Shown: one piece after another, positions 11,175-58,698 of the stretch
How positions within the stretch are numbered: position 1 is the stretch's first letter
Layout: each line of letters opens with the position of its first letter
Assembly (NCBI GenBank): GCA_002483445.1
Contig: DLHY01000152.1
Coordinates: forward strand, 4,021-68,020
DNA: 64,000 nt
Source: Blastocatellia bacterium UBA7656
Lineage (GTDB): Bacteria > Acidobacteriota > Blastocatellia > UBA7656
Direction of reading: 5' to 3'
The notes under the pieces: model-generated
Told to the model about the DNA's origin: nothing
What the model saw: only the letters and a program-made list of their open reading frames with translations
Databases searched by the model: none
Program-made: the position numbers and the translations under genes

Positions 11175-14000
11175 CTAAAGCCTGATTATTTTCGATTCGC
11201 ACTCAGGCATTCCGAGTTTGCGAGTGACGTTTCGCGTATCGAGTATGAGCGGCGCGAGGCGGGCTACGCGCGAGTAGTCTACGTTTGAGTGATCCGTCAC
11301 TATCAGCGCGCAATCGCATGAGACGATAAGTTCGTCCGTGAGCGGCTCGCTTCGGAGCGCCTCCTTGCTGTCGAGCCTCATCTCCGCGATATAAGAATCG
11401 TGATAGCTGACTCGTGCGCCTTTCGCTATGAGTTCTTCGACTATGGCGAGTGCAGGCGATTCCCGCACATCATCGATATCGCGCTTGTAGGCCACGCCCA
11501 GCACCAGCACGCGCGACCCTCTGAGCGGTTTGCTGTGATCGTTCAAAGCGTCCTGAACCCGACCGATCACATAGCGAGGCATGTGCGAATTGACTTCTTC
11601 GGCCAATCCGATGAAGCGCGCTTCGAATCCGTGCAGCCGCGCTTTCCATGAGAGATAGTGAGGGTCGAGAGGTATGCAATTATGCGCATAAATCCCGAAT
11701 GAAGTAGCGAACGTGTGAGTGTCTTCGACCTCGACGGAGTATACATCGACTGGGGATTCAGGCAGAGCAATCTCGATTGATTTAATCGGAACAGTCATAA
11801 GCAATCCTGCTGCTTTGAATGTTTTGCTTGCCGGAGCGCGACGGCTTTCTTCAAAGTATCGTTCTAAAGATTTGCCTTTGTTTCCAAGCCAGCCACGCAA
11901 CTTCATCAACTGCTCTCGACCTTTGAGTCTGAGATGCGGCTTCACACGATTAAATGTTGGAGTAAAGCCGAGGCTTTGAAGCAGGTAGACAGTTTGTTGA
12001 AACAATATAGGGCTGCTGCTGAAGAAGCCCACTTCTGCTGAAGCGTTTCGGCTGATATAACTCCGACCGTTTTTCCTGTAAGGCCGCATTCCTGTAATCA
12101 CATAAACATCCCCATCTCCGCGCAAAAGACCTTTGAGCAGTTCCCGCCGATGCACAGGAGATGCGCTCATCAAAACGTCAGGCACTCGCATGTCTGTGGA
12201 GCGCGCGCCGCAACTAAGCACATCTGCAAACAGCCATCCGAGCAATGGGGAACTAGCGCGAATATGTGTGGCTCTGTCGATTTTCGAATGGCTAATACTG
12301 CTCTTCACCCCCAATTCATTTTGCAAAAGGGAACGAACATCGTTGATGAATTCTGTCTCTGCACTGTTGAAAGTAAAACGAATTCGATAGCGCCCGTACT
12401 CGCGACTGATGCAACCTTCTGCAAGGTAATATCCAATCAGCCTCGCCAGACCGGGGGTCAGATTTATCTTTACGGGAAAAGATGTCATGCTTGGCCCTCG
12501 TCCTGTGTGCAGGCGAAGCGATTCATGAGGAAGGCTCAAATCTCCCGATCTTTCCAGTGCAAGAAAATCGTTAAATGGAACATAATCCTGACGCATGAAT
12601 TCATGAATAGAACTGGCTGACAGCCTGCTGCGAAGCGATTCCCGATGATCGCGCCATACTCCACCAACTATTCGAATCCGTGCCTTTGCCGCCAGATCGG
12701 AAGGTATAAGCGAAAATAGATCAAGGGATGGGTTGGTTGCATCGCCCGTTAATCCTCCCATCACAGGCGTAGGCAAATAGTGAATGGGGATTCGATCACC
12801 CGATGTCAAATCTCTGGCAAACACCTGACGCAATCGACCCTGCTCATCGCTCACCAGCATCGGATGTTTGTCGGTCGCCTTCAAACGCCGGTTGTCGCTC
12901 GTCGTGACGGTGACGATTTCTCCTTCATACTTGCGGCGGAAAAGGTATGTGAGGGGTTTCCATACGGGCTGCTGCGTTTCAGCATCGAGCGACAAAGCTT
13001 CAAGACCAGGCGCGTAAATAATCTCCGCGCCGTCGACAGTGAATCGGCGCACATCCGGCTTCGAAACCTGTTCAGCAAAAATTGCGGCGAGCGACGTGAC
13101 GCGCTCTATCTTCTCATTAGCAGATCGAACGATTATGGTTTCTTGTCCAACCAGACAATGCCCACCTATTCCGGGGCCGGGATAGAAGGCCATGAATCCG
13201 AATGGCTTGGTCGCTGCCGCATGAATGACTTCCCACGAATCGATCCCGAGATGATGGCAAAGCTGAGCCATCTCGTTGACTAAAGCTATGTTGACGGAAC
13301 GAAAAGTATTTTCCAGAAGCTTCGCCGTCTCGGCCACTCTCGCGCTCGAAACCTTATGCACTCGCTCTACGATGGTTTGATAAAGCGCCGCCGCAATCTC
13401 GGTCGACAACCCTGACACTCCGCCGACTACTTTCGGGATGTTATGAGTTTGAAACTGAGGATTGCCCGGATCGACTCTTTCAGGCGAGAAGGCAAGAAAA
13501 AAATCCTTGTCCAGAGCAAGCCCCCTCTCTTCCAGCATCGGAAGCAACACTTCGTCGGTCGTGCCGGGATAAGTGGTCGATTCGAGAATGACCAATTGAG
13601 GCGAACGCAGATTGGCTCTCACCTGCTCGCTTGCGGCGAGGATGTAAGAGATATCAGGCTCTTTGGTTTTGCGAAGCGGAGTCGGCACGCAAATGATGGC
13701 AGCATCTATTTCTTTGAGGCGCGAAAAATCGGTCGTCGCCCTTAGCTTTTCTCTTTCAACAAGCGCGCGTATCGATTCGGTAGCAACGTCGGGTATATAA
13801 GAAACTCCTGAATTGATCGTTTCAGTTCGATGGGCGTCGAGATCGAATCCTAAAACGCTGAACCCGCCGCGACCGAATTCGACCGCAAGCGGCAATCCCA
13901 CATAACCGAGTCCGAGTATGCCCACGACGGCGCGACGCTCTATGATTTTGCTCAATAATTCTGCGCTCATTTTTATTTCCTCGATCCTTGCGCGTGACAC
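11175..14000 (-). CDS. UDP-N-acetyl-D-mannosamine/UDP-sugar 6-dehydrogenase (WecC/TviB/Cap5O family) interrupted by an in-frame intein.
   Basis: N-extein: GILGLGYVGLPLAVEF Rossmann motif, then ...PGPGIGGH. C-extein begins CIPLDPHYL (canonical GGHCIP catalytic-Cys motif) and continues with the UDP-binding domain (VLVLGVAYKRDIDDVRESPA). Exteins sum to ~448 aa, a normal size for this family. Confidence 0.85.
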   Translation of the reverse strand: MSRARIEEIKMSAELLSKIIERRAVVGILGLGYVGLPLAVEFGRGGFSVLGFDLDAHRTETINSGVSYIPDVATESIRALVEREKLRATTDFSRLKEIDAAIICVPTPLRKTKEPDISYILAASEQVRANLRSPQLVILESTTYPGTTDEVLLPMLEERGLALDKDFFLAFSPERVDPGNPQFQTHNIPKVVGGVSGLSTEIAAALYQTIVERVHKVSSARVAETAKLLENTFRSVNIALVNEMAQLCHHLGIDSWEVIHAAATKPFGFMAFYPGPGIGGHCLVGQETIIVRSANEKIERVTSLAAIFAEQVSKPDVRRFTVDGAEIIYAPGLEALSLDAETQQPVWKPLTYLFRRKYEGEIVTVTTSDNRRLKATDKHPMLVSDEQGRLRQVFARDLTSGDRIPIHYLPTPVMGGLTGDATNPSLDLFSLIPSDLAAKARIRIVGGVWRDHRESLRSRLSASSIHEFMRQDYVPFNDFLALERSGDLSLPHESLRLHTGRGPSMTSFPVKINLTPGLARLIGYYLAEGCISREYGRYRIRFTFNSAETEFINDVRSLLQNELGVKSSISHSKIDRATHIRASSPLLGWLFADVLSCGARSTDMRVPDVLMSASPVHRRELLKGLLRGDGDVYVITGMRPYRKNGRSYISRNASAEVGFFSSSPILFQQTVYLLQSLGFTPTFNRVKPHLRLKGREQLMKLRGWLGNKGKSLERYFEESRRAPASKTFKAAGLLMTVPIKSIEIALPESPVDVYSVEVEDTHTFATSFGIYAHNCIPLDPHYLSWKARLHGFEARFIGLAEEVNSHMPRYVIGRVQDALNDHSKPLRGSRVLVLGVAYKRDIDDVRESPALAIVEELIAKGARVSYHDSYIAEMRLDSKEALRSEPLTDELIVSCDCALIVTDHSNVDYSRVARLAPLILDTRNVTRKLGMPECESKIIRL
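11679..13157 (-). mobile_element. Full-length intein (~493 aa) with LAGLIDADG homing-endonuclease domain, inserted at the catalytic cysteine of the UDP-sugar dehydrogenase.
   Basis: Block A CLVGQETIIV. Block B ATDKHPMLV (TxxH). LAGLIDADG motifs LIGYYLAEGCIS and LKGLLRGDGDVYV. Block F VYSVEVEDTHTFA. Block G ...GIYAHN followed by +1 Cys (CIPLD). Junction codons checked in DNA: ...GGH|C at 13155-13157 and N|C at 11679-11681 / 11676-11678. Confidence 0.8.
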
Positions 14001-17616: not shown

Positions 17617-20600
17617 TCAACTCCCATTGCCGCACGGGGCGACGATGCTGTCTCTGGTGTCAGAATCGATGATCGTACACTTCACCGTTCCCGGCGGCAT
17701 CTGCAACACTCCCTGCCCCTTCTTCTGACACGTGTCATAAGTCAGCGTCAGCCTCCTGTTCCCGGAGTTGTGCGTCAACGTCAACACGCATCCCTTCTTC
17801 ACTATCGTCCCCTTCCCGCTTACGATCATCCCTCCGCAGCACACCATGTAATCCCCCGTCAGCGTGTTGATGAATATCGCTCCTCCTCCGCTGTCGCTCC
17901 TTATCGCCACGTCGAACGTCGTCACGATGAAGCTGCAACTCGCAGTGTTGCCGCTCGTGTCCGTCGCCGTGCAAGTCACCGTCGTAAATCCTGCCGGGAA
18001 ACTCGATCCACTCGGCGGTGTGCAAACGGTCATCATCACTGCGCAGTTGTCCGATGAAGTCGGCGCTGGGTAATTCACCACCCCCGGCGGAGCCACCTGT
18101 GTCGGCGGACACACTATCGAAGGCGCCTGTGTGTCGTTGACCGTTACGGTGAAGCTGCACATCGCCGTGTTGCTGCTGGCGTCGGTCGCCGTGCAAGTCA
18201 CCGTCGTCGTCCCTACCGGGAATGTTGAGCCTGACGCGGGCGCGCACGCCACTCCTACTCCAGGACAGTTGTCCATCGCTGTTGCCATGAAAGTCACTAC
18301 CGCTGAACACTGCCCCGCTGTGTTTCCTGTCACTATGTTCGAGGGACACGTTATGCTCGGCGGCTGCATATCGTTGACCGTTACGGTGAACGAGCAGTTG
18401 GCTGTGTTGCCTGCTCCATCGCTCACTGTGCAGCCGACCGTTGTGACTCCTTTCGGGAATGTTGAGCCTGTCGGCGGGGTGCAAACCGGCGTCCCAACGC
18501 CAGAACAGTTGTCTGAGACCATCGGCGCTGAATAGCTCACGACTGCCGTACACACTCCCGCATCTGTTGACTGTGTGACCGGCGACGGACAGGTGATCGA
18601 AGGCGCATCGTCATCATTGATCGTTACACTGAAGCTGCACATCGCAGTGTTGCCGCTTGCGTCGGTCGCCGTGCAAGTCACCGTCGTCGTTCCTGTCGGG
18701 AATGATGTCCCGGTGTTTGGCGAGCAGGCCACACTCACTCCCGGACAGTTGTCCGCCCCTGTCGGCACCGTGTAGTTGACTATCGCTGCGCACATTCCAG
18801 CGTCCGTACCCTGCGTGATGTTAGAAGGACACATCACGGTCGGGTTCTCGGTGTCGTTGACCGTGACGGTGAACGAACAACTCGGCCCCACTGAGGTCGA
18901 ACACGTTACAGTCGTCGTGCCGACAGGGAACGATGAGCCTGATGCGGGATTGCAAGTCACCGTTCCGCAACTGCCCGTCGTCGTCGGGTTGGAGTAGCTG
19001 ACGACAGACGAACACTGGCCCGCGTCGTTGTTGGTCGTGATGTTCGACGGACAACTGATCGTGCATTGCACCACTTCTATGGTGAAAGAGCAGGAAGCTG
19101 TGTTGCTGCTGGCGTCAGTCGCCGTGCAGGTGACAGTCGTCATCCCAACGGGGAAGCACATCCCCGATGCTGGCGCGCAGACGACCATCGCTCCCGGACA
19201 GTTGTCTGTAGGAGTTGGAGTCGTGTAGTTGACCGTCGCGCAGCCAGCCCCGGTCGAAATCAGCATGTTGGGCGGGCAGGTGATCGAAGGAGGCTGATTG
19301 TCTGTCACCGTGACGGTGAAGGAACACATCGCCGTGTTGCCTGCTGCATCCGAGACCGAACAGGTAACGGTAGTCATCCCAACACTGAAGGATGAGCCTG
19401 ATGCGGGCGCACACATAGGCGTGCCGACTCCGGGACAGTTGTCCGAGGCCGTAGGCGGGGTGTAATTGACCGTTACGGTACACTGGCCCGCAGGCGGGGT
19501 CGTTGAGATATTAGACGGGCAGCCGATCAGCATCGGGTTTTCGGTGTCGTTGACCGTCACGGTGAAAGAGCATTGAGCCATCAGCCCTCCGGCATCAGTC
19601 ACGGTGCAGGTGACGGTCGTAGTCCCCTTGGGGAAAGCTGTTCCGGTGTTGGGAGCGCAGACGACATTGGCGCCTGGGCAGTTGTCCATCGGAGAGGGGA
19701 CGGTGTAGTTGACCACTGCTGTGCAAAGTCCCGAATCGGTGTTTGTAGTGGCGTTGGCCGGACAGGTGATGGTCGGATTCTCATTGTCGTTGACGGTGAC
19801 GGTGAAAGAGCAGTTGGCCGAGCCTGCTGAGTTGGTGGCCGAGCAGGTGACGGTAGTGACACCTTTGGGGAAAGCGAAGCCAGAAGCAGGAGAACACATC
19901 ACAGTAGGGACAGGGCAGCCGGTGACGGTGGGAGCGAAAGTTTCGACCGCCGTGCATTGACCCGGATCAGTATCAGTAGTGATGTTGGCCGGACAAGAGA
20001 TGGTCGGCACAGTGACTATAGTTGTGACAGTAGGCTGAGCGCCCATCATGCCAGCATCGCCGTCGGTTTGAATGTTAATGCCGCCATCGGCAGTGACAGT
20101 ACCCTGATTGGAGACAGAGCAGACACCATTGGGGAGCGGGTCATTGATCGTGACGTTGAACATGACGGTGATACTCTTGCCCGCAGGAAGGGTGAACGGG
20201 CCGAAGCTAACGGTCTCGCCGCTGGGAGTCATCACAGCAACACGTCTGGCGCGTGATCTGTAGTTGCTTGCGAACCCAGCAGGGTCAGCCCTCATCACGA
20301 CAGGCTTGAGCATCTCGTCAGATATAGCTGCCTGATCTGTCGCCGGGTTGAAGACGGCATAACGAGCATCGGCGGGAATTTTCGCCCTATCGGTTTGAAC
20401 ATTCGCCGTGCTGCTTTCAACCTGCGCGCCAGCGTGCTGGCTGCTCGCTTGCTTCACCGACTTGTCATCAGTAGAGGGCTTGATTGAGCCTATGGGCGAA
20501 GGAGTTACTTTCCACTGGTCAAGCGGCAAGCGCCTGACGCCAGGTGAAAGCGTGCCTTCCATAAGCGGCTGTAGGTTCTTCCGCTCTTTCTTCGGGAGCC

Positions 20601-23600
20601 GGTCTTTGCCCTGCATATAAACGTACCCAAGCTCGCGTATCACTACTGTGAGCAAGTCCATCTTGCCGTGCGCGATACTCAGGTCAGTCGTTTGAAGCTC
20701 TTTATCAGGAACAAGCACCTGGAATTCGCCGTCTTCCTGAGGTGTTTCATCGAAGTACCAGCCATAGCCTGCCGCCGTCTTATCAATCTTGACGTGTGTT
20801 GAAGAGACGTCTGCAAACTGATCGCCTGGCAAGTCAGCCATTTCGAATGAAACTGCGCGAAGGCGCGCGAGGTCTTCGGCAGCGATTTCTAACTGCTCCC
20901 ATCTTGCAAGGGCCGCTTGAACCGTCCATTGCAACTCGGCATCTTGGAGCTTATTAACCTGTTCTTCGCTTTGCCGCTCGCTGCTTGCGGCGACACAAGC
21001 GCTAGGAGGCCCCTTGCCTTCTTCGGGAGGCAGACTCAATGAGCCTGAGTCCGCAACGCCCCCTCTAAAAACAGATAATGGGGTCGTAATCGGCCCGGCA
21101 ATGAGCGCGACCCCGAACGCGGAGGCCGTGCCGGTATTTGTACTCGTCAATTGCGCCGTGGCATCGGCGCTCGCCGGCGGGGTGTCAACCAATTGCCCGA
21201 TGCCGTGACCGCCCGCCGCATCGTACTCGTAATAGGCAAGCTGCGTTGGAAGCAGGTCGAAAGTGGTCGTGCTGGGAACTATGTTGCCGCGCACGTCAGC
21301 CCGAACCGTTGGCGCTTTGTTGTCGGCACCAGTCTGGTTGTCGGCTTCGATCATAATCGCCGACAGAGGAAATCCAGATGGCGCCGGACCGGGGTCAACG
21401 TCGTTGTTAGTGAGGGTCACGTCGCTGGTCACGGTGTTCGGACCAAGGCTGCTGGCGAGAGGAGGCGCGGGGCCACGGAAAGCCACCGCGATACCGCGAG
21501 CGTCTGGCGTGCTCCTGATACGGTTGCCGTCGATGAGCATAGTAGCATCTGTCTGTCCCTGAATGACGACAGAAATGCCGCTGGCAACGGTGGCGCCATT
21601 GTTAATGTGGTTTCCCGAGATGGTGGCGACGATAGTGCCGCCGGTCGCCTGCGAGGATGAGAAGACGTTAACGGCCTGTAGAACAGTGCCAGTCATTGGA
21701 GACGCGAGCGTGCCATTATTGATGAACTTGAATGCATTGTTGGAACTGCTGTCCTGGGTGAAGCTGGCGTGGATGCCGTTGTTAGTGAACGTGTTGCCAG
21801 AGACGGTGAAATATGTTGCTGGTATGGCAGAAGTATTGCCGATTCTTCCGGTGTCGTGCGTCTGCACTTCCAAAGCTCGCTGGGGCGAGTTGTTGGTAAA
21901 CGTGCATCCGCTGATGCTCGCTACAGTCGTCACAGCCGTTCCCGACATCTCGAACAGGAACGCGTTGGCGCCGAACGTGTCGTTGAGGTCGTTGAAGGTG
22001 CTGTTCGTCACCGTGAACGAATCGATTGTCCCTGAGGTGTTGCGGAGGTGAACATTGTTGTGCGCGTTCCCGTTGACAGAGCTGTTGGTAATCGCTACGG
22101 TTCCGATTACACCCACAAAGGTACCCGATGGTTCGCCGAATCGAATTCCATCGTCGGAAGTGCTGTTGCCGTTGGTCGTGACGTTGCTGCGGTTGAGCGT
22201 GAAGCCATTGACATTGAGGCCCTTGATCCCGCTATCACCGCTGTTCTGGATGTTCATGTAGCCGAGGGAGACGTTGGTTGCGGCGTCGATTGCGACACCA
22301 TTCCCGCTTGAACTTTTGATAGAGCCCCCTGAGCCGTTGTTTGAAGCCCCGCCATCTCCTGCGACGGTAAAACTGCCGCTGGTTCTCGTAAGGATCAGGC
22401 CGCTTGTACCACCGCTTCCAGACGCCTCATTCATAGATACTTTCGTCAGCGTCATCATTAGTGGAGTTGTGCTGCTGCTGCGTGTGATCTCAACAGCCGT
22501 CGCGCTAGTGGTGCTGATAGTGCCGCTGGTCGTCGTGATGGTCATCGTGTTTTCGGTGGCGAGCAAGCCTCTCTGGTTTTGTTCCGGTGAGATGTTGAGA
22601 GCGCCAAATGTGATTGTGCCAGTGTTGGTAAGCAGGCTGACTCCTGTATTGCCTGTAGTGTTGGCATCTGGATTGGTTACGCTGGTAGTGCCAAAATTGA
22701 GAGTGGCGCTTGAAGTATTAACACTTATGCCAATGCCCGCCGCGTCCGTGACGGTTGTCGAACCAGACGACAGGCTACCGCTTGCGCTCGTCAGGCTTAT
22801 CCCTGTCGTCGTGCTGCCCGTCGATGTCAACGAGGTGAACGTCATCCCTATCGTCGTCGGATTGACATTGAGCGCAGGCCCGCCCGTCGCCACAACCGTA
22901 CCGCCGCTCACGTTGACCGTCCCGCTGCTCGCGGCTAGTATGCCCGTACCCGCTGTCACGCTGACCGTCACTCCTCCGCTGAAGTTGAATGTCGTCGCTC
23001 CGTTCGTTGCCAGATTGATTCCTGTCGCCGTGGCGTTCGTGATCGTAGTCGCTCCGCTTACGGTGAACGTCCCGCCCGTCGCTCCTGTCACTCTCAACCC
23101 TTGCGCTCCCGTCGTCGAACTCGCGCTCTCCAACGTCACCCCCAGCGTTCCCGCTGTCTGAATATCAACAGCCGCTCCCGGATTGCCCACCGCCTGCACT
23201 GTATCAGCGTTGAGGTTCCCGACGCTCGATCCGCCTATTCCTGCGCTTGCTCCTCCGGCGGCTGTCGTCTGCGCGACGAGTCCTCGCACCGTGTTGCCGC
23301 TTGCCAGCGTCACTCCGTTTCCTCCGCTATTGGTGATCGTCGGCTTCGCTCCCGCTGGGTTGAGCGTCAGGCTCGCGACGACCAAAGCCACTCCTTGCCC
23401 GATCAGTTTCTGACCAGTTTCAAGTCCTATCCCTGTCGTGTAATTCCCGCTTCCCGTGTGCACATAGATGAACTCGTTGGGATCGTCCGCGTCTCCCGCG
23501 CCTCCCGCTCCGTTTACTGGCGCGAGTGTCTGGAAGGGTGAAGTGGAACGTCCGTCGCCGCCTGCCGCTGATGCGTTGTTGACGTACCAGACCATCTCCG

Positions 23601-24285
23601 TGACCGTGATCGTGACTGTAGCCGTGCTGGTCTTTCCTGCCGAATCCTTGATCGTGTAGGTGAAGGTGTCTGTCCCGGTGAATCCTACCGGCGGCACATA
23701 GTCGAGATGGCCAAAGACCGGGTTGATGCTGACGTTGCCTCCCTGCGCGCTCGGATTTTGAAATGTGTCGAGCGTGAAAGTATCGCCGAGGAACTCCATA
23801 TCGTTGTCGAAGAGCGAGTCTCCTGGAATTACGACTTCAGGGCCGCTCACCGAGGCACTACCGACCTTGAGGCGAGTATTGCCGATAGTCGTGTAAGCGT
23901 CGTTGCCCGCCAGAGGCGAGACGTTGACTGATCCCATCACCAGAGTGGTGTTGGCGTCAATCATATCGGTGAACATCACGTTGGTAGCCGGGTCGGGGCC
24001 TCCATTGGAGAGAGTGACGGAGTACATCAAGGTGTCGCCGGGTTCGGCATTCCCGCCATTGACATCAGTGGCCGTTTTGGTCGCTGACAGGGAAGGAGCG
24101 AATGGGGCGGAGGTGATGACCGAAACCGGATCAAGGACAGAGGACATCTCGCTTTTGACAACAGGGATCGAATTCTCTGATCGAGAGGAAGAGGCGGGCT
24201 GGATGGCCAGCAGCAGCGTCAATCCTACGATGGCTGCTGATGAACGAATCAAAGTACCGGCAAGGCTAACACGATTTCTCCTCAT
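17617..24285 (-). CDS. Giant secreted surface/adhesin-like protein (~2222 aa): signal peptide, parallel beta-helix/POMP-like T/S/G-rich region, 9 tandem HYR domains, conserved C-terminal module.
   Basis: Start ATG 24285 with GGGAG SD (MRRNRVSLAGTLIRSSAAIVGLTLLLA). Nine CPxN...PxGxxF.xGxTxVTCxAxDxxGNxxxCSFTVTV units (HYR). C-terminal ~100 aa has a CCGG...LTL.HN...LQ.PPG...C.I.D..RD...CG.GGS pattern shared with the 38757..40877 protein. Confidence 0.8.
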   Translation of the reverse strand: MRRNRVSLAGTLIRSSAAIVGLTLLLAIQPASSSRSENSIPVVKSEMSSVLDPVSVITSAPFAPSLSATKTATDVNGGNAEPGDTLMYSVTLSNGGPDPATNVMFTDMIDANTTLVMGSVNVSPLAGNDAYTTIGNTRLKVGSASVSGPEVVIPGDSLFDNDMEFLGDTFTLDTFQNPSAQGGNVSINPVFGHLDYVPPVGFTGTDTFTYTIKDSAGKTSTATVTITVTEMVWYVNNASAAGGDGRSTSPFQTLAPVNGAGGAGDADDPNEFIYVHTGSGNYTTGIGLETGQKLIGQGVALVVASLTLNPAGAKPTITNSGGNGVTLASGNTVRGLVAQTTAAGGASAGIGGSSVGNLNADTVQAVGNPGAAVDIQTAGTLGVTLESASSTTGAQGLRVTGATGGTFTVSGATTITNATATGINLATNGATTFNFSGGVTVSVTAGTGILAASSGTVNVSGGTVVATGGPALNVNPTTIGMTFTSLTSTGSTTTGISLTSASGSLSSGSTTVTDAAGIGISVNTSSATLNFGTTSVTNPDANTTGNTGVSLLTNTGTITFGALNISPEQNQRGLLATENTMTITTTSGTISTTSATAVEITRSSSTTPLMMTLTKVSMNEASGSGGTSGLILTRTSGSFTVAGDGGASNNGSGGSIKSSSGNGVAIDAATNVSLGYMNIQNSGDSGIKGLNVNGFTLNRSNVTTNGNSTSDDGIRFGEPSGTFVGVIGTVAITNSSVNGNAHNNVHLRNTSGTIDSFTVTNSTFNDLNDTFGANAFLFEMSGTAVTTVASISGCTFTNNSPQRALEVQTHDTGRIGNTSAIPATYFTVSGNTFTNNGIHASFTQDSSSNNAFKFINNGTLASPMTGTVLQAVNVFSSSQATGGTIVATISGNHINNGATVASGISVVIQGQTDATMLIDGNRIRSTPDARGIAVAFRGPAPPLASSLGPNTVTSDVTLTNNDVDPGPAPSGFPLSAIMIEADNQTGADNKAPTVRADVRGNIVPSTTTFDLLPTQLAYYEYDAAGGHGIGQLVDTPPASADATAQLTSTNTGTASAFGVALIAGPITTPLSVFRGGVADSGSLSLPPEEGKGPPSACVAASSERQSEEQVNKLQDAELQWTVQAALARWEQLEIAAEDLARLRAVSFEMADLPGDQFADVSSTHVKIDKTAAGYGWYFDETPQEDGEFQVLVPDKELQTTDLSIAHGKMDLLTVVIRELGYVYMQGKDRLPKKERKNLQPLMEGTLSPGVRRLPLDQWKVTPSPIGSIKPSTDDKSVKQASSQHAGAQVESSTANVQTDRAKIPADARYAVFNPATDQAAISDEMLKPVVMRADPAGFASNYRSRARRVAVMTPSGETVSFGPFTLPAGKSITVMFNVTINDPLPNGVCSVSNQGTVTADGGINIQTDGDAGMMGAQPTVTTIVTVPTISCPANITTDTDPGQCTAVETFAPTVTGCPVPTVMCSPASGFAFPKGVTTVTCSATNSAGSANCSFTVTVNDNENPTITCPANATTNTDSGLCTAVVNYTVPSPMDNCPGANVVCAPNTGTAFPKGTTTVTCTVTDAGGLMAQCSFTVTVNDTENPMLIGCPSNISTTPPAGQCTVTVNYTPPTASDNCPGVGTPMCAPASGSSFSVGMTTVTCSVSDAAGNTAMCSFTVTVTDNQPPSITCPPNMLISTGAGCATVNYTTPTPTDNCPGAMVVCAPASGMCFPVGMTTVTCTATDASSNTASCSFTIEVVQCTISCPSNITTNNDAGQCSSVVSYSNPTTTGSCGTVTCNPASGSSFPVGTTTVTCSTSVGPSCSFTVTVNDTENPTVMCPSNITQGTDAGMCAAIVNYTVPTGADNCPGVSVACSPNTGTSFPTGTTTVTCTATDASGNTAMCSFSVTINDDDAPSITCPSPVTQSTDAGVCTAVVSYSAPMVSDNCSGVGTPVCTPPTGSTFPKGVTTVGCTVSDGAGNTANCSFTVTVNDMQPPSITCPSNIVTGNTAGQCSAVVTFMATAMDNCPGVGVACAPASGSTFPVGTTTVTCTATDASSNTAMCSFTVTVNDTQAPSIVCPPTQVAPPGVVNYPAPTSSDNCAVMMTVCTPPSGSSFPAGFTTVTCTATDTSGNTASCSFIVTTFDVAIRSDSGGGAIFINTLTGDYMVCCGGMIVSGKGTIVKKGCVLTLTHNSGNRRLTLTYDTCQKKGQGVLQMPPGTVKCTIIDSDTRDSIVAPCGNGS

Positions 24286-24909
24286 AACATCACTCCCTTT
24301 GTGAAGGCGGACGAGCCGCTCGGCGATATTAAACGGGATCATTTTTCCGGCCTGATCTTCCTCGACGGCATCTGGGGAAATGCCGGATCAGGCTATTGCG
24401 TAGGCATTCAGAGATAGAGCCTCAGAGTCAAGCGCGCAAAGCGTCGCCGTGGAGATGAGACTCGATTCTCAAAAACAGAAAGCAGGCGCGCACATACTGA
24501 AAGCGCGCGACAGGGCGGCGAAACACAGTGAGCGAAAAGAGCCTTTTGTTTTTACCATTCCGGTTTCGAAAGACCGTAAGTTATGCTCGAAGCGAACTGC
24601 AAAAACACTGAAACATTGGCTGATGAAGAATCGTCAGTCGGGGCTTATCTTACTCGACCACAGGTCGAATATCCAGACAAGTTTTCTACCGGCAATTGAA
24701 GGCATCAAGTCGGGTGAAGCGCAGCCTTATGCATTGTGCGTTTACGAATTGAAAGTATTGAAACCTCGCTCCACTATCAGTACAATCCCGACTGTCCGAT
24801 CTGCCCCCGATTCGCCAGTATCCTCATTCGAAAAAATATAGCTGATCGACACCGATTGATCGGCCCGCGTCCTCACCACCCGATTCGCGCTCCGACTCTT
24901 AGTGAAAGG

Positions 24910-29528: not shown

Positions 29529-29602
29529 GATGTTAGAGGTTAGATGCTGGATGTTAGTGAGAACGAGTAGCTACTAACATCTAACATCTGATATCTAACA
29601 TC
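29529..29602. repeat. Microsatellite hairpin (GATGTTAG-type repeats vs CTAACATC repeats) between sdhB stop and the downstream gene start.
   Basis: gatgttagaggttagatgctggatgttagt ... actaacatctaacatctgatatctaacatc; the right arm abuts the sdhB stop (29602-29604). Confidence 0.6.
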
Positions 29603-30342
29603 TACTTTTTGAAAATGCGCACGAGCTTGACGAGCGGGTCATAAAACTCGCTGACCACGCGCTCCTTGAGCGGGATGATCGCGTTGTCGGTTATCGTTAT
29701 TTCTTCAGGGCAAACTTTCGTGCAGCACTTGGTGATGTTGCAATAACCTATGCCGTCCGTATCTTTCAATTCCGCCAGACGATCCTCCACGTCGAGCGGG
29801 TTCATCTCCAGAGCCGCCACATAAACGAAGAAGCGCGGGCCGATGAATTCCTTATGCAGATGATGCTCGCGCAAAACATGACAGACATCCTGACAGAGAA
29901 AACATTCTATGCACTTGCGAAATTCCTGCACCCGGTCGATGTCCTTTTGAGACATGCGCCAGGTGCCGTCTTCTGCATCAGGCGGACGTGGCTTGAATCG
30001 CTTGATCTTCTTTTTCACTTCATAGTTCCACGACACATCCGTGATGAGGTCTTTGACGAGAGGAAATGCCTTGAGCGGTTCGACTCTCACGGGCTTATCA
30101 GTCGGAAGGCTGTTGAGCCGCGTCATGCACATCAATCGAGGAAGTCCGTTTATCTCCGCCGAACACGAGCCGCACTTGCCCGCTTTGCAGTTCCACCGAC
30201 AGGCAAGATCAGGCGCTTCGTCGGCCTGTATTCGGCGCACAGCGTCAAGCACTACCATGCCTTCGGCAACTTCTGTGGTGTAATCGACGAACTGGCCGCT
30301 TTCGGCGTCGCCTCGCCATATTCTGAATGTCGCCTTTGCCAT
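29602..30342 (-). CDS. sdhB: Succinate dehydrogenase/fumarate reductase iron-sulfur subunit.
   Basis: 2Fe-2S motif CRWNCKAGKCGSCSAEINGLPRLMC and 4Fe-4S/3Fe-4S cysteine clusters (CIECFLCQDVC, CNITKCCTKVCP). Confidence 0.9.
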   Translation of the reverse strand: MAKATFRIWRGDAESGQFVDYTTEVAEGMVVLDAVRRIQADEAPDLACRWNCKAGKCGSCSAEINGLPRLMCMTRLNSLPTDKPVRVEPLKAFPLVKDLITDVSWNYEVKKKIKRFKPRPPDAEDGTWRMSQKDIDRVQEFRKCIECFLCQDVCHVLREHHLHKEFIGPRFFVYVAALEMNPLDVEDRLAELKDTDGIGYCNITKCCTKVCPEEITITDNAIIPLKERVVSEFYDPLVKLVRIFKK

Positions 30343-54512: not shown

Positions 54513-55214
54513 ATGGCGGAAAAACTGTCGATACATATCAACGACGATGACATCGTCACAGGATCGATTTATTTTGCGACTCCGCGCAAACGAAAGCGAG
54601 CGACGCTTCTGCTCGGACACGGAGCGGGCGCGAATCAGCAGAGCGAATTCATGGTGAGTTTCGCTCGCGGGCTTGCTTTGCGTGGAATCGATGCGGTCAC
54701 TTTCAATTTTCTCTACACAGAGCGGAGCCGCCGCGCGCCCGACCGAAACGATAAACTTGAAAGCTGTTACATGTCCGCGATTGATTCGGTCCGCGGTCAC
54801 AAAAAACTCAAGGGCAACAAATTGTTGATCGGCGGAAAATCCATGGGCGGGCGCATAGCCTCGCAGGTCGCGGCTTCAGGAGTTGAAGTTTCAGGATTGA
54901 TCTTTCTCGGCTATCCGCTCCATCCTCCTGGCAAACCCGAAGCGACGCGCGATGCGCATCTCGCGCTCGTCCGTTCGCCGATGCTTTTCCTTCAGGGCGA
55001 GCGAGATGCTTTCGGCACATCGGAAGAAATCTCCCGCATGATAAAACGGCTCAAGCTCGATGCAAGAATTTATCCGGTAGAGGGCGGCGATCATTCTTTT
55101 ACGGTTCCGAAAAGCCGGGGCATATCCGAGGAAGAAATTTTCCGGCTCGCTGAGGATGAAATCGCGCGATGGGTGGACGAGTTGATTCGAAATGAAAAAG
55201 GAAGCGGGAAATGA
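54513..55214 (+). CDS. Alpha/beta-hydrolase fold protein (dienelactone-hydrolase-like).
   Basis: ATG 54513. TLLLGHGAGANQQSEFM...LLIGGKSMGGRIASQV (GxSxG nucleophile elbow)...GERDAFG...GGDHSF (Asp/His). Confidence 0.7.
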   Translation: MAEKLSIHINDDDIVTGSIYFATPRKRKRATLLLGHGAGANQQSEFMVSFARGLALRGIDAVTFNFLYTERSRRAPDRNDKLESCYMSAIDSVRGHKKLKGNKLLIGGKSMGGRIASQVAASGVEVSGLIFLGYPLHPPGKPEATRDAHLALVRSPMLFLQGERDAFGTSEEISRMIKRLKLDARIYPVEGGDHSFTVPKSRGISEEEIFRLAEDEIARWVDELIRNEKGSGK

Positions 55215-55246
55215 TCCCGCTTCCCTGAAGCTTTCGCTGATGATTT

Positions 55247-55798
55247 TTACTGTCCGACGATATCGCCCTTGAGCGATCCGAGGATGGTGAGCAGTTCAGT
55301 CTTTTCGGCCTCAGGCACGTTGAATTTGTCGAGCGCCTTGACGAGGTCTTCGACCAGCGCGGTGAAATCGGCATCGGTTATGCCCATGCCCTTGTGAGAG
55401 GTCTTCATATCCTTGCCCTTGTATTTGCAGCGACCGCCGGTGGCCGAGCAAATCTGAGCGACAAGATTATCCTTGAGAGCCTGAAGACGGGCCGGGTTGG
55501 CGACTGTATCGGCGAAGAATTTGTTGATGCGGTTATCAGCGCCTACGACGTTGATGAATTCGTCTACGACTGCCGTTATCGCCTTCTTGCCTCCGAGTCT
55601 GGTGTAAAGCGTTTTCTTCTTGGAAGATTTGCCTTCCTTCATCTTGTCGTCCGACTTCATCTTGTCGTCCGACTTCATCTCTTTTTCTTCGGACTTCTTC
55701 TTGTCTTTGTCTTTCTGCATCGCGAATGACGATGCAACGCTGAATGATCCCATTGCCAGCATTGCTGCGATTGCGATTGCGGTCAAAGTCTTGCGCAT
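55247..55798 (-). CDS. Truncated haemoglobin (group I trHbN-like) with N-terminal signal peptide and a Lys/Asp-rich low-complexity linker.
   Basis: Signal MRKTLTAIAIAAMLAMGSFSVASSFA. KDKDKKKSEEKEMKSDDKMKSDDKMKEGKSSKKK linker (21-bp tandem DNA repeat). Globin core TLYTRLGGKKAITAVVDEFINVVGADNRINKFF...HKGMGITDADFTALVEDLVKALDKFNVPE. Confidence 0.75.
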   Translation of the reverse strand: MRKTLTAIAIAAMLAMGSFSVASSFAMQKDKDKKKSEEKEMKSDDKMKSDDKMKEGKSSKKKTLYTRLGGKKAITAVVDEFINVVGADNRINKFFADTVANPARLQALKDNLVAQICSATGGRCKYKGKDMKTSHKGMGITDADFTALVEDLVKALDKFNVPEAEKTELLTILGSLKGDIVGQ

Positions 55799-56080
55799 AA
55801 GCTGATCCTTCCTTTCTTACGAGTTAAAGAAGAGCGGCTCTGTCAGCGCCGCTTTTGTGATTGGTTCGAATTGATTTTGAACAGTGAGGCTCAGGGATTA
55901 CCAACCGGGCGAATCCGAAAGCAAACTGTTAAGTATAATGCCATAAGCGCGCCAACTCCGGGGCTGCGATTTTATCAGCCTCCCACGAGGCGCGCAATGA
56001 GCAATACGGAGTGAAACTTTACGGGTTAAAAGCCTCAAACCCCTATTACGCGCCCGCCGACGGATGTGGATTTTATCGGA

Positions 56081-57424: not shown

Positions 57425-57553
57425 CAGTTTTCAGTTTTCAGTTTTCAGTTTTCAGTTTTTCATCACTTCGTTTCAGGTCATCGCTCTTGACGACCTGAAT
57501 AACTTTTCATCTGAGAAATGAAACTGCTTCTGAAAACTGAAAACTGAAAACTC
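57425..57553. repeat. Microsatellite hairpin: CAGTTTT x4 ... GAAAACT x3 around a ~75-nt spacer, between the beta-lactamase-like stop and the permease start.
   Basis: cagttttcagttttcagttttcagttttt ... gaaaactgaaaactgaaaactc read directly. Confidence 0.65.
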
Positions 57554-58572
57554 TACCTGGGCTGGAACAAAAAGAAATCGTGAACCGCGCGCGCGATCTC
57601 AGCTATCGCGCGCTCGCGGGCCGCAGCTTCTTTTTCGGATGACTTCACGAAAACCGCGACGGCGACGTGCGTCGAGTCGGGCAGCGTTATGATGCCGACA
57701 TCGTTCGTCGAGCCGCCGATGGTTCCGGTCTTGTGAGCGACCTCGGTGCCTTCAGGCAGCAATCCGCGAAGTCGCGCTTCGCCCGTGCGGCAACGGCGAA
57801 GTATGTCGAGCAGCAGATCGGCGCTCGGATCTTTGAGCAGGTCTTTGCGAAAAATGCGCGCAAGCAGATCAGCCATCGCGTCGGGCGTAGAAGTGTCGCG
57901 CGGATCAGTATCGAAACGTTTCGCCGCAGCCGCGCGGTCTTCAGGTTTGACCGCAGAGTATTTCATGCGAAACAAGGCCGGAGTCCACTCATCTTCGGGC
58001 GGAAGGTCGGTCGCGCCTATCCAGTCGGATATGAGTTGAGCCGTCGAGCGATTGACGTTGATGCCTTCAATGGCAAGCGCGCGCATACGAGCGGTTACTG
58101 CCTCAGCGCCCCCGGCTAAACGAAGGCAGATATCGGTCGCGCTGTTGTCACTGATGAGCAGCATCAGTTCGATCAGGTTGCGAACCGAAAGCGAGAGGCC
58201 CGGTTTGTTGAACAGATCGGAAAGAGTGCCGCTGCCGGGGTGAAGGTCTTTCGGTTTTATTTCGATCATGTCTTCGAGGCGGACTTCTCCCTGATCGATG
58301 AGGGTGAAGAGTTGAACGGCGATGGGGATTTTGTAGGTGCTGGCCATGGGGAATCGCTCGCCGCCGTTGATAGAAACCCGTCGACCTGTCTCAAGATGAA
58401 TCGCAGTTGCGCCTACAGTGCCGCCTCCGACGCGAGCCAGTCGCGACATTTCGCGTTCCAGTCTTTCAAGCGCCGGGTCGCGACGTTGAGCGACGGCGGA
58501 TGAGTGGAGAACGAAAAGGGCGAGACATAGCAGGGCGACTTGATATGATCTGAGCGCGCTTCGACTTTTCAT
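57553..58572 (-). CDS. Class A beta-lactamase-family serine hydrolase, secreted.
   Basis: ATG 58572; signal peptide. SxxK (MASTYK), SDN (LLISDNSATD) and KTG (AHKTGTIGGS) motifs all present. Confidence 0.75.
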   Translation of the reverse strand: MKSRSALRSYQVALLCLALFVLHSSAVAQRRDPALERLEREMSRLARVGGGTVGATAIHLETGRRVSINGGERFPMASTYKIPIAVQLFTLIDQGEVRLEDMIEIKPKDLHPGSGTLSDLFNKPGLSLSVRNLIELMLLISDNSATDICLRLAGGAEAVTARMRALAIEGINVNRSTAQLISDWIGATDLPPEDEWTPALFRMKYSAVKPEDRAAAAKRFDTDPRDTSTPDAMADLLARIFRKDLLKDPSADLLLDILRRCRTGEARLRGLLPEGTEVAHKTGTIGGSTNDVGIITLPDSTHVAVAVFVKSSEKEAAARERAIAEIARAVHDFFLFQPR

Positions 58573-58698
58573 AGCATCCTTTCCGAGATAGATGATTCGA
58601 GAGCGGGCACAATTCCTAACACAAACGTCGCCGCCTATCAACAGCGGGGCGCGCATATCAAACTTGGCTCTGACGCTTTCAGAATAATCAACCAACGA

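Follow-up and report, generated by a model that had tools for sequence, protein, structure and literature searches.

A putatively exported group-1 truncated haemoglobin with an apolar haem pocket encoded by a Blastocatellia bacterium

Introduction

The bacterial truncated haemoglobins (trHbs) that have been studied are treated as cytoplasmic proteins. A gene in Blastocatellia bacterium UBA7656 (Acidobacteriota) raises the question of whether some members of this family work outside the cytoplasm and, if so, what they would do there. It lies at 55247–55798 on the minus strand of a 64-kb stretch of a biofilm metagenome (assembly GCA_002483445.1, contig DLHY01000152.1, positions 4,021 to 68,020 of the forward strand; hereafter the window) and encodes a 183-residue group-1 trHb in which a hydrophobic leader and a charged, low-complexity segment precede the globin domain. 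An initial annotation, made from the sequence without database searches, had read the product as an exported globin that handles nitric oxide (NO) or O2 and is possibly held electrostatically on the envelope. Here, we consider it likely that the product is a Sec-exported periplasmic group-1 trHb, processed by signal peptidase I (SPase I), of the apolar-pocket (TrHbN-2-like) class, buffering or carrying ligands close to the membrane. Most of this confidence belongs to the exported, haem-binding globin of TrHbN-2 type; the physiological role, taken by itself, is a tentative proposal.

Results

A predicted Sec signal peptide and its translation start

55247–55798, minus strand: complete gene for the 183-residue pre-protein, with an ATG start and the stop codon TAA at 55247–55249 (open reading frame list)
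55806–55813, minus strand: Shine–Dalgarno (SD) sequence AGGAAGGA, 7 nt 5′ of the ATG (read from the sequence)
55721–55798, minus strand: predicted signal peptide, residues 1–26, with n-region MRK, h-region TLTAIAIAAMLAMG, c-region SFSVASSFA and a predicted SPase I cut after A26

The N-terminus of the protein (MRKTLTAIAIAAMLAMGSFSVASSFA) shows the n/h/c layout of a Sec signal peptide cleaved by SPase I, with a positive n-region, an h-region within the usual 10–15 residues, a polar c-region and small residues at −3 and −1 of the AXA-type site SFA↓MQ. The leader was assigned by inspection and hydropathy (maximum 12-residue hydropathy 2.39), and in the AlphaFold2 (AF2) model this region has a predicted local distance difference test (pLDDT) score below 50. 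The cleavage-site pattern is conserved across relatives (ASA, AQA, SFA). The protein is accordingly predicted to be a Sec-exported, SPase-I-processed precursor, which supports, as a sequence prediction, the N-terminal export signal that the initial annotation had placed on this group-1 trHb. That annotation had left the choice between SPase I and lipoprotein processing to be settled; the site SFA↓MQ points to SPase I. Lipoprotein (SPase II) routing was rejected for this protein because its first Cys is Cys117 and it has no lipobox; position 18 is Ser here and Cys in some relatives, and many relatives carry lipoboxes. Twin-arginine translocation (Tat) was likewise rejected for this protein, since the n-region is only MRK and contains no twin arginine. 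An NCBIfam scan of the globin gave only sub-threshold matches to leader-plus-charged N-termini such as Spy.

An internal Met start after the hydrophobic segment had been named as the finding that would undo the export reading. The ATG for M27 coincides exactly with the predicted cleavage site. No SD precedes M27, either here or in the four acidobacterial relatives checked (L003, L006, L008 and L009; 58–86% identical), whereas all four carry a GAAAGGAG-type SD ahead of M1. The hydrophobic leader is conserved at the protein level and is kept even in relatives without any internal Met. Because the SD stands only before M1, and because of this conservation of the leader, we take M1 as the translation start and reject M27. 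An identical protein is called on two other, independent metagenome contigs, one of them from a biofilm sample.

A group-1 globin core with an apolar distal pocket

55250–55612, minus strand: 2-on-2 globin core, residues 63–183, assigned to the group-1/N trHbs with an apolar pocket of TrHbN-2 type (AF2, Foldseek, phmmer)
55553–55555, minus strand: codon of Ile82 at B10 (Tyr in classical trHbN), aligned to Tyr33 of Mycobacterium tuberculosis (Mtb) HbN
55394–55396, minus strand: codon of His135, which aligns to His81 of Mtb HbN and is the proximal haem ligand (F8)

Residues 63–180 match the Pfam family Bac_globin (PF01152; E=2.5e-12, 47.5 bits against a cut-off of 21, profile positions 1–119 of 121), and a phmmer search of PDB sequences retrieved solved group-1 trHbs, the best being Shewanella benthica HbN (E=6.6e-16). 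The AF2 model is a 2-on-2 helical sandwich with pLDDT >90 across residues 61–183 and 91–97 in the core; its helices, modelled with pLDDT >90, comprise residues 64–67, 70–87, 96–100, 102–119, 131–134, 142–158 and 163–180. The top 27 Foldseek matches were all group-1 trHbs. Mtb HbN (1idr) superposes with a TM-score of 0.87 and a root-mean-square deviation (rmsd) of 1.0 Å, S. benthica HbN (8ugz) with a TM-score of 0.96, and the core also superposes on the Tetrahymena trHb.

Pocket residues were assigned by BLASTP to an Mtb HbN sequence whose numbering reproduces the published Y33/F46/L54/Q58/H81/V94. The alignment places Ile82 at B10, Phe95 at CD1, Leu108 at E7, Leu112 at E11, His135 at F8 and Leu148 at G8. 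The phmmer alignment to S. benthica HbN agrees with these assignments and puts Cys117 on its Cys51 (E16). H135, F95, G69–G70 and G121–G122 align to H81, F46, G20–G21 and G67–G68 of Mtb HbN; in an alignment of acidobacterial relatives (A1), His F8, Phe CD1 and both Gly-Gly hinges are invariant or nearly so, and the proximal F8 column holds His in 494 of 516 related domains. The proximal His that the initial annotation had wished to see confirmed is present as H135, and from it and the other conserved pocket residues we infer haem b binding.

The B10 Tyr, by contrast, is replaced by Ile82, and E11 is Leu rather than Gln, so that the hydrogen-bond network of classical TrHbN-1 proteins (Tyr B10 with Gln at E7/E11) is absent (Ile82, Leu108, Leu112). 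In a one-genome-per-species scan that found relatives in at least 561 species, the best 80, to which all species-locus counts here refer, carry V (62), I (13), L (4) or T (1) at B10 and Tyr in none. Among domains from the representatives introduced below, a list ranked by similarity to this protein, Tyr B10 occurs in 82 of 182 domains of leaderless proteins versus 7 of 187 in exported ones. Hydrophobic residues at B10, E7, E11 and G8 define TrHbN-2 (Lecomte and co-workers, PMC11904497), and all four are found here (Ile82, Leu108, Leu112, Leu148); this alignment gives an entirely apolar distal pocket. 'Low affinity is correlated with Leu at E7, E11 and G8' (Bustamante et al., PMC4720485), and the same study ties the apolar pattern to a storage/transport-type role and the high-affinity Gln/Tyr N subclades to NO detoxification. 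With Tyr B10 and Gln E11 replaced by Ile and Leu, the pocket is therefore assigned to the apolar TrHbN-2 type. This weakens a reading as NO dioxygenase while leaving NO chemistry possible, and the NO-dioxygenase activity envisaged in the initial annotation finds no support, as it was stated, in an apolar pocket of predicted low O2 affinity. A 5-residue CD-E insertion together with the Cys pair described below suggests a distinct sub-branch relative to TrHbN-2.

A Cys pair that co-occurs with export signals

55427–55450, minus strand: Cys117 (E16) to Cys124 (EF loop), C-x6-C, invariant in alignment A1

Cys124 lies two residues after the EF Gly-Gly. Of the 516 related domains, 187 have both Cys and 21 have only the one at E16; no domain has only the one in the EF loop. 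The pair is found in 77 of 78 species loci and is confined to proteins with a leader or a lipobox, or to N-terminally incomplete fragments. This strict co-occurrence and the restriction to exported proteins would result from a structural disulfide made in an oxidising compartment: C117–C124 is probably an intramolecular periplasmic disulfide, and the pair would lend independent support to an extracytoplasmic location. Covalent c-type haem attachment via the two Cys was rejected, as there is no CXXCH or CXnCH motif and no Cys-His dyad, the C-x6-C being followed by His135 ten residues on.

Export signals across the clade

A word-indexed search returned 1454 homologues, the closest 86% identical. 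The best 120 of them are almost all either acidobacterial proteins of 148–210 residues with the same leader or two-globin proteins of about 276 residues, which belong to Bacteroidota (Arcicella and relatives) and carry a lipobox. A profile-free search, run exhaustively over 1.8 billion representatives, gave 4465 relatives; N-termini with a signal peptide or lipobox occur in about 100 of the best 150 representatives at 50% identity. A loose twin-arginine pattern is present in three of these 150 and is convincing in two (P0263, RRSFLRG plus lipobox; P0168, NRRHFLV). At the species level, a hydrophobic leader (signal peptide or lipobox) was found in all 80 loci, 78 by script and two that had been missed through parsing or start-call artefacts. 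Export is therefore predicted to be the rule across the clade and not a peculiarity of this gene. The premise of the initial annotation that such globins are normally cytoplasmic thus holds for the trHbN proteins that have been studied, but not in this clade.

The best 80 species are metagenome-assembled genomes labelled Blastocatellia, Vicinamibacterales, Bryobacterales, Terriglobia, Thermoanaerobaculia, Gemmatimonadota and Casimicrobiaceae/Thiobacillus, together with Saprospiraceae/Emticicia, Myxococcales, Latescibacterota and others, and a few Clostridia or Firmicutes. The database label for these proteins, a plain 'group 1 truncated hemoglobin', hides the distinction between exported and non-exported forms.

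Tandem arrays of 2–12 trHb domains, reaching 1882 residues, are common among the relatives (P0121–P0270). Those arrays that lack a leader and have Tyr B10 resemble eukaryotic ones, and those that are exported and have an apolar pocket are bacterial lipoproteins whose linkers are rich in Asp/Thr/Gly, Pro/Ala or Cys/Pro/Asn (NPC repeats in P0187).

A charged N-terminal tail of variable length

55613–55720, minus strand: predicted disordered polyampholyte tail or linker, residues 27–62 (MQKDKDKKKSEEKEMKSDDKMKSDDKMKEGKSSKKK), net charge +5 (composition)
55637–55680, minus strand: perfect tandem repeat, period 18 bp, 2.4 copies, encoding MKSDDK MKSDDK MK (Tandem Repeats Finder score 88, 100% matches)

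The low-complexity, KD-rich segment that had been noticed after the signal peptide is borne out by composition: residues 27–62 contain K15 D6 S5 E4 M4, with AF2 pLDDT values of 41–47 and no secondary structure. The repeat within it had been described as 21 bp long and located at about 55640–55700; the actual period is 18 bp and the tract shorter. By our own arithmetic, a 26-base exact re-occurrence such as that in the repeat would be expected about 1e-11 times by chance in 64 kb. The MKSDDK unit is charge-neutral. Relatives carry MKDDK twice or in single copies, and the variation in repeat number between close relatives indicates that units have been gained and lost by expansion and contraction.

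The stretch that separates leader from globin measures 2–62 residues in 86 close relatives with a single domain, and it is always rich in K/D/S/A/E (K 37%). Its net charge has a median of +3, is above zero in 81 of these 86 proteins and lies between +4 and +7 in every linker of at least 22 residues among those listed. Long versions are built of charge-neutral repeats like MKSDDK, and the first few mature residues of the relatives are neutral or acidic, the early mature region being neutralised by Asp/Glu, a feature in keeping with export. Since the protein has no lipobox Cys and hence no lipid anchor, residues 27–62 would form a free N-terminal tail after SPase I cleavage, and the term 'tether' would apply only if the leader stayed uncleaved. 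The earlier proposal of an electrostatic tether is not supported as stated, because the tail appears to be a polyampholyte of only modest net charge. This modest, conserved positive charge would nevertheless be compatible with weak attraction to anionic envelope components.

Transcription and gene neighbourhood

55198–55226, minus strand: hairpin plus T-run, a predicted intrinsic terminator with a 12-bp stem and 7 GC pairs, followed by TTTTCATTT (terminator scan)
57553–58695, minus strand: class A beta-lactamase-like gene that matches NCBIfam bla_class_A above its cut-off (234 bits)
L018, L024, L031, L034, L044, L067 and L087 (e.g. L031: 6567–7361 and 7383–7733; L034: 6424–7209): globin with DUF420-cupredoxin gene
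L014–L053 (e.g. L029: 6622–8781, minus strand; L038: 8829–11297): HbpS-like/multihaem-cytochrome neighbourhood

In the window, the globin gene is surrounded by genes for an APC permease, a class A beta-lactamase-like protein, a PMT_2-family (mannosyltransferase-like) membrane protein, an alpha/beta hydrolase, MurB and a creatininase-family protein. None of these has to do with haem or redox reactions. On the globin strand, the nearest upstream gene is that of the APC amino-acid permease; it ends 283 bp from the globin gene, which, given this gap, looks like its own transcription unit. The terminator hairpin just 3′ of the globin stop overlaps the 3′ end of the convergent alpha/beta-hydrolase gene and is common to both. 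A sigma-70 promoter scan upstream of the globin gene gave no match, a scan that is uninformative for Acidobacteria, and an Rfam scan of the whole 64-kb window likewise gave none.

About 20 nt upstream of the globin SD, a 6-bp GC-rich hairpin (AGCGGC...GCCGCT) followed by CTTCTTT is found at 55833–55853 on the minus strand; the portion of relative L003 that was read preserves both the 3′ arm and the tail. It could be a structure of the 5′ untranslated region or a weak terminator of upstream transcription.

A conserved operon partner was rejected after clustering of open reading frames across the 80 species loci, in which the commonest neighbour, the class A beta-lactamase-like gene, reached 13 of 80, all at or near the level of Blastocatellia. 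In these 13 loci (L006–L010, L013–L053) it stands just upstream of the globin gene, and in the window it is one gene further off, with the permease between; it could reflect lineage synteny or a shared envelope function. The most suggestive neighbour, and a candidate lead to a redox partner, is a DUF420 (CtaM-like) membrane domain fused to a type-1-copper cupredoxin, which adjoins the globin gene in 7 of 80 loci from three acidobacterial classes. It lies directly downstream on the same strand in six of the seven and on the opposite strand in one, and is sometimes followed by a second, secreted cupredoxin. As the flanks are otherwise unrelated (including a resolvase and a NikA-like gene), the pair of globin and DUF420-cupredoxin behaves as a module. 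DUF420 is the CtaM family, which is needed for haem-copper oxidase function in Staphylococcus aureus and Bacillus subtilis and was recently proposed to be a copper exporter (PMC4958251, PMC13344008).

Other neighbours are specific to single lineages. In Blastocatellia, 10 of 80 loci have a convergent, signal-bearing protein of about 700 residues with a partial HbpS-like (haem-degrading protein) domain (E=1.1e-15, 45 of 128 profile positions), and this gene is followed, beside the globin, by one for a class III multihaem c-type cytochrome of about 780 residues in 8 of 80. Loci of Thiobacillus/Casimicrobiaceae have a divergent extracytoplasmic-function (ECF) sigma factor (10 of 80). A tblastn search of the window with the DUF420-cupredoxin, HbpS-like and multihaem-cytochrome neighbours of the relatives gave no match.

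In Arcicella (L011/L012; 7001–7831 and 8344–9630), a glutamyl-tRNA reductase (Pfam GlutR) comes next after the two-domain lipoprotein globin and on its strand. This HemA-type enzyme catalyses the first step of haem synthesis.

Discussion

Fold and family of this globin are ordinary; its compartment, disulfide and charged tail, as predicted here, are not. The closest characterised protein is the TrHbN-2 S. benthica HbN (PDB 8UGZ, 7TT9), the best match among solved structures, which shares the hydrophobic B10/E7/E11/G8 residues and the Cys at E16 (PMC11904497). It differs in being a cytoplasmic 116-residue chain without a leader, in having Tyr at CD1 and His at B13, and in lacking the EF-loop Cys as well as the CD-E insertion of 5 residues; the distance between its own two Cys precludes a bond between them (PMC11904497). 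Mtb HbN (PDB 1IDR), a TrHbN-1 and NO dioxygenase, has the same group-1 2-on-2 fold (34% identity), the Gly-Gly hinges, Phe CD1, His F8 and a charged N-terminal extension, and differs in Tyr33 (B10) and Gln58 (E11), which are Ile and Leu here. According to the work that PMC9536834 cites (Arya 2013 for its location), it reaches the cell surface and is glycosylated. It has no signal sequence.

Among the remaining precedents, the pentahaem cytochrome/trHb fusions of cable bacteria (lPHCtX) contain trHb domains with a signal peptide and are proposed to be periplasmic O2 reductases (PMC11976967, citing Kjeldsen 2019). We liken them by description only: their partners are multihaem c-type cytochromes and they are reported from no organisms but cable bacteria, whereas the acidobacterial globin described here stands alone and bears a disordered tail. 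YjbI of B. subtilis has been shown experimentally on the cell surface or in the biofilm matrix, where it protects surface proteins from oxidation (PMC9536834), and the window, too, stems from a biofilm metagenome. YjbI is, however, a group-2 trHbO with a polar distal site, no signal peptide and an unknown export route, in a monoderm host. The cable-bacteria fusions, YjbI and glycosylated Mtb HbN are the extracytoplasmic trHb precedents in the literature searched. This literature, which was mostly without subscription journals, yielded no account of group-1 globins that stand alone and are exported by Sec or as lipoproteins, so that an earlier mention elsewhere is possible; a 2020 review of globin diversity mentions neither signal peptides nor periplasm nor lipoproteins. 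The globin thus appears to be a member of a large, undescribed group of export-signal globins predicted to work outside the cytoplasm.

We propose a scheme in which (i) the apo-protein would cross the membrane unfolded via Sec and be cleaved after A26; (ii) it would fold, and C117–C124 would be oxidised, in the periplasm; (iii) haem b would be taken up there, as for cytochrome b562; (iv) without a hydrogen-bond donor over the iron, O2 would be bound weakly and in a rapidly reversible manner, and NO and CO would bind as well; and (v) the globin would act as a ligand buffer or carrier beside the membrane rather than as a Tyr-B10/Gln-E11 NO dioxygenase. In some relatives it would probably be kept reduced, or used catalytically, via the neighbouring membrane-anchored cupredoxin. 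The charged tail may be a variable-length spacer whose small and constant positive charge may help it to associate loosely with anionic surfaces of the envelope, while lipoprotein relatives would reach membrane proximity by a lipid anchor instead. As to the role, we infer O2/NO binding in the envelope, with redox coupling possible. Cytochrome b562 is an unrelated four-helix bundle with Met/His bis-ligation and an electron carrier, not a gas-binding globin. It nevertheless offers a precedent for the assumed haem-acquisition step, as this small soluble Sec-exported haem-b protein of Escherichia coli is loaded with porphyrin in the periplasm and its holo form appears there after Sec transport (PMC12844524). 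Among the relatives, the two of Tat type are in keeping with a cargo that bears a cofactor.

Several points weigh against this interpretation. The Sec route needs periplasmic insertion of haem b, for which we know of no general pathway. The leader is predicted by inspection and hydropathy, the probable disulfide is deduced from sequence co-occurrence, and the clade as a whole is known from sequences and models. The contrast between exported and leaderless proteins in their pockets is biased by the ranking of the representatives. The 64-kb window holds no reductase, cupredoxin or haem-handling neighbour, and the 80 species loci share no family-wide partner gene. Proteins with b-type haem are 'commonly cytoplasmic or within the membrane' (PMC7096707). 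The low affinity for O2 is predicted for the class by computation, and the authors who described TrHbN-2 warn that its properties 'escape easy prediction' (PMC11904497).

With regard to function, the exported globin could instead be an envelope NO dioxygenase that binds O2 and turns NO to nitrate in the periplasm like Mtb HbN, with which it shares fold and group; oxy-haem of any kind reacts fast with NO, and cupredoxin or multihaem-cytochrome neighbours of some relatives could supply electrons. Its charged disordered extension, in our view, loosely recalls the pre-A segment of Mtb HbN, a stretch of 12 residues that is unrelated in sequence to the tail. We regard this function as unlikely, given the missing Tyr B10/Gln E11 network for high O2 affinity, the lack of Tyr B10 throughout the 80 loci, the association of NO detoxification with the high-affinity N subclades (PMC4720485) and the lack of a reductase gene nearby in the window.

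There is a small chance that the globin fold holds, buffers or hands over haem b rather than gases, as a periplasmic haem carrier or scavenger. A conserved proximal His in an apolar pocket, the HbpS-like gene next door in Blastocatellia relatives, the glutamyl-tRNA reductase gene adjoining the Arcicella tandem globin and the high haem capacity that arrays of up to 12 domains would provide are in keeping with such a function. The haem-related neighbours, however, are lineage-specific (at most 10 of 80), absent from the window and, in the HbpS-like case, recognised over little more than a third of the profile; no linked haem transporter or TonB haem-receptor signature accompanies the globin, and to our knowledge no globin acts as a hemophore.

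A similarly small chance attaches to an uncleaved signal-anchor, in which the K/D-rich linker would be a true tether holding the globin at the outer face of the inner membrane. This would make sense of the linker and recall the lipoprotein relatives, which are membrane-tethered through comparable low-complexity linkers, and cleavage of the leader is itself a prediction. A hydrophobic core of only about 13–14 residues followed by a polar c-region with small residues at −3/−1, and the conserved ASA, AQA, SFA pattern, are typical of cleaved leaders and argue against it; an anchor would in any case alter the topology, not the chemistry. A cytoplasmic globin translated from Met27 behind a non-coding leader is very improbable despite the ATG at the cleavage site, in view of the strong SD before M1 here and in relatives, the protein-level conservation of the leader and a Cys pair whose restriction to export-signal proteins argues for an oxidising compartment.

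If the clade does work outside the cytoplasm, as the preferred reading of a Sec-exported TrHbN-2-type globin implies, it would place a reversible O2/NO-binding haem in the bacterial envelope, raise the problem, so far unsolved, of delivering haem b to apo-proteins that Sec exports, and provide a natural TrHbN-2 set with clues (location, disulfide, occasional cupredoxin partner) to the role of the apolar-pocket subgroup. For a globin specialist, the breadth of the exported clade and the haem-insertion problem would be the surprise. A wider claim is speculative and probably does not hold: soil and freshwater bacteria numbering hundreds of species (Acidobacteriota, Gemmatimonadota, Betaproteobacteria, Bacteroidota and others) might possess an undescribed class of extracytoplasmic haem-b globins, TrHbN-2-like, single or in tandem, soluble or lipid-anchored and disulfide-stabilised, that forms a periplasmic O2/NO-handling layer and is coupled to the DUF420(CtaM-like)-cupredoxin in some lineages. 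Were this true, the layer could supply or buffer O2 for haem-copper oxidases, or could itself be an alternative reductase of oxygen or NO in the periplasm, like that postulated for cable bacteria, and haem b would have to have a general way into proteins exported by Sec.

Other features of the window

11175–14000, minus strand: 941-residue UDP-glucose/GDP-mannose dehydrogenase interrupted by an intein with a LAGLIDADG homing-endonuclease domain (Pfam Intein_splicing 325–774, LAGLIDADG_3 518–573)
17617–24342, minus strand: giant open reading frame of 2241 residues
30342–32717, minus strand: succinate dehydrogenase/fumarate reductase flavoprotein whose FAD domain is preceded by some 197 residues of unusual N-terminal extension
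29602–30342, minus strand: Fe-S subunit following this flavoprotein

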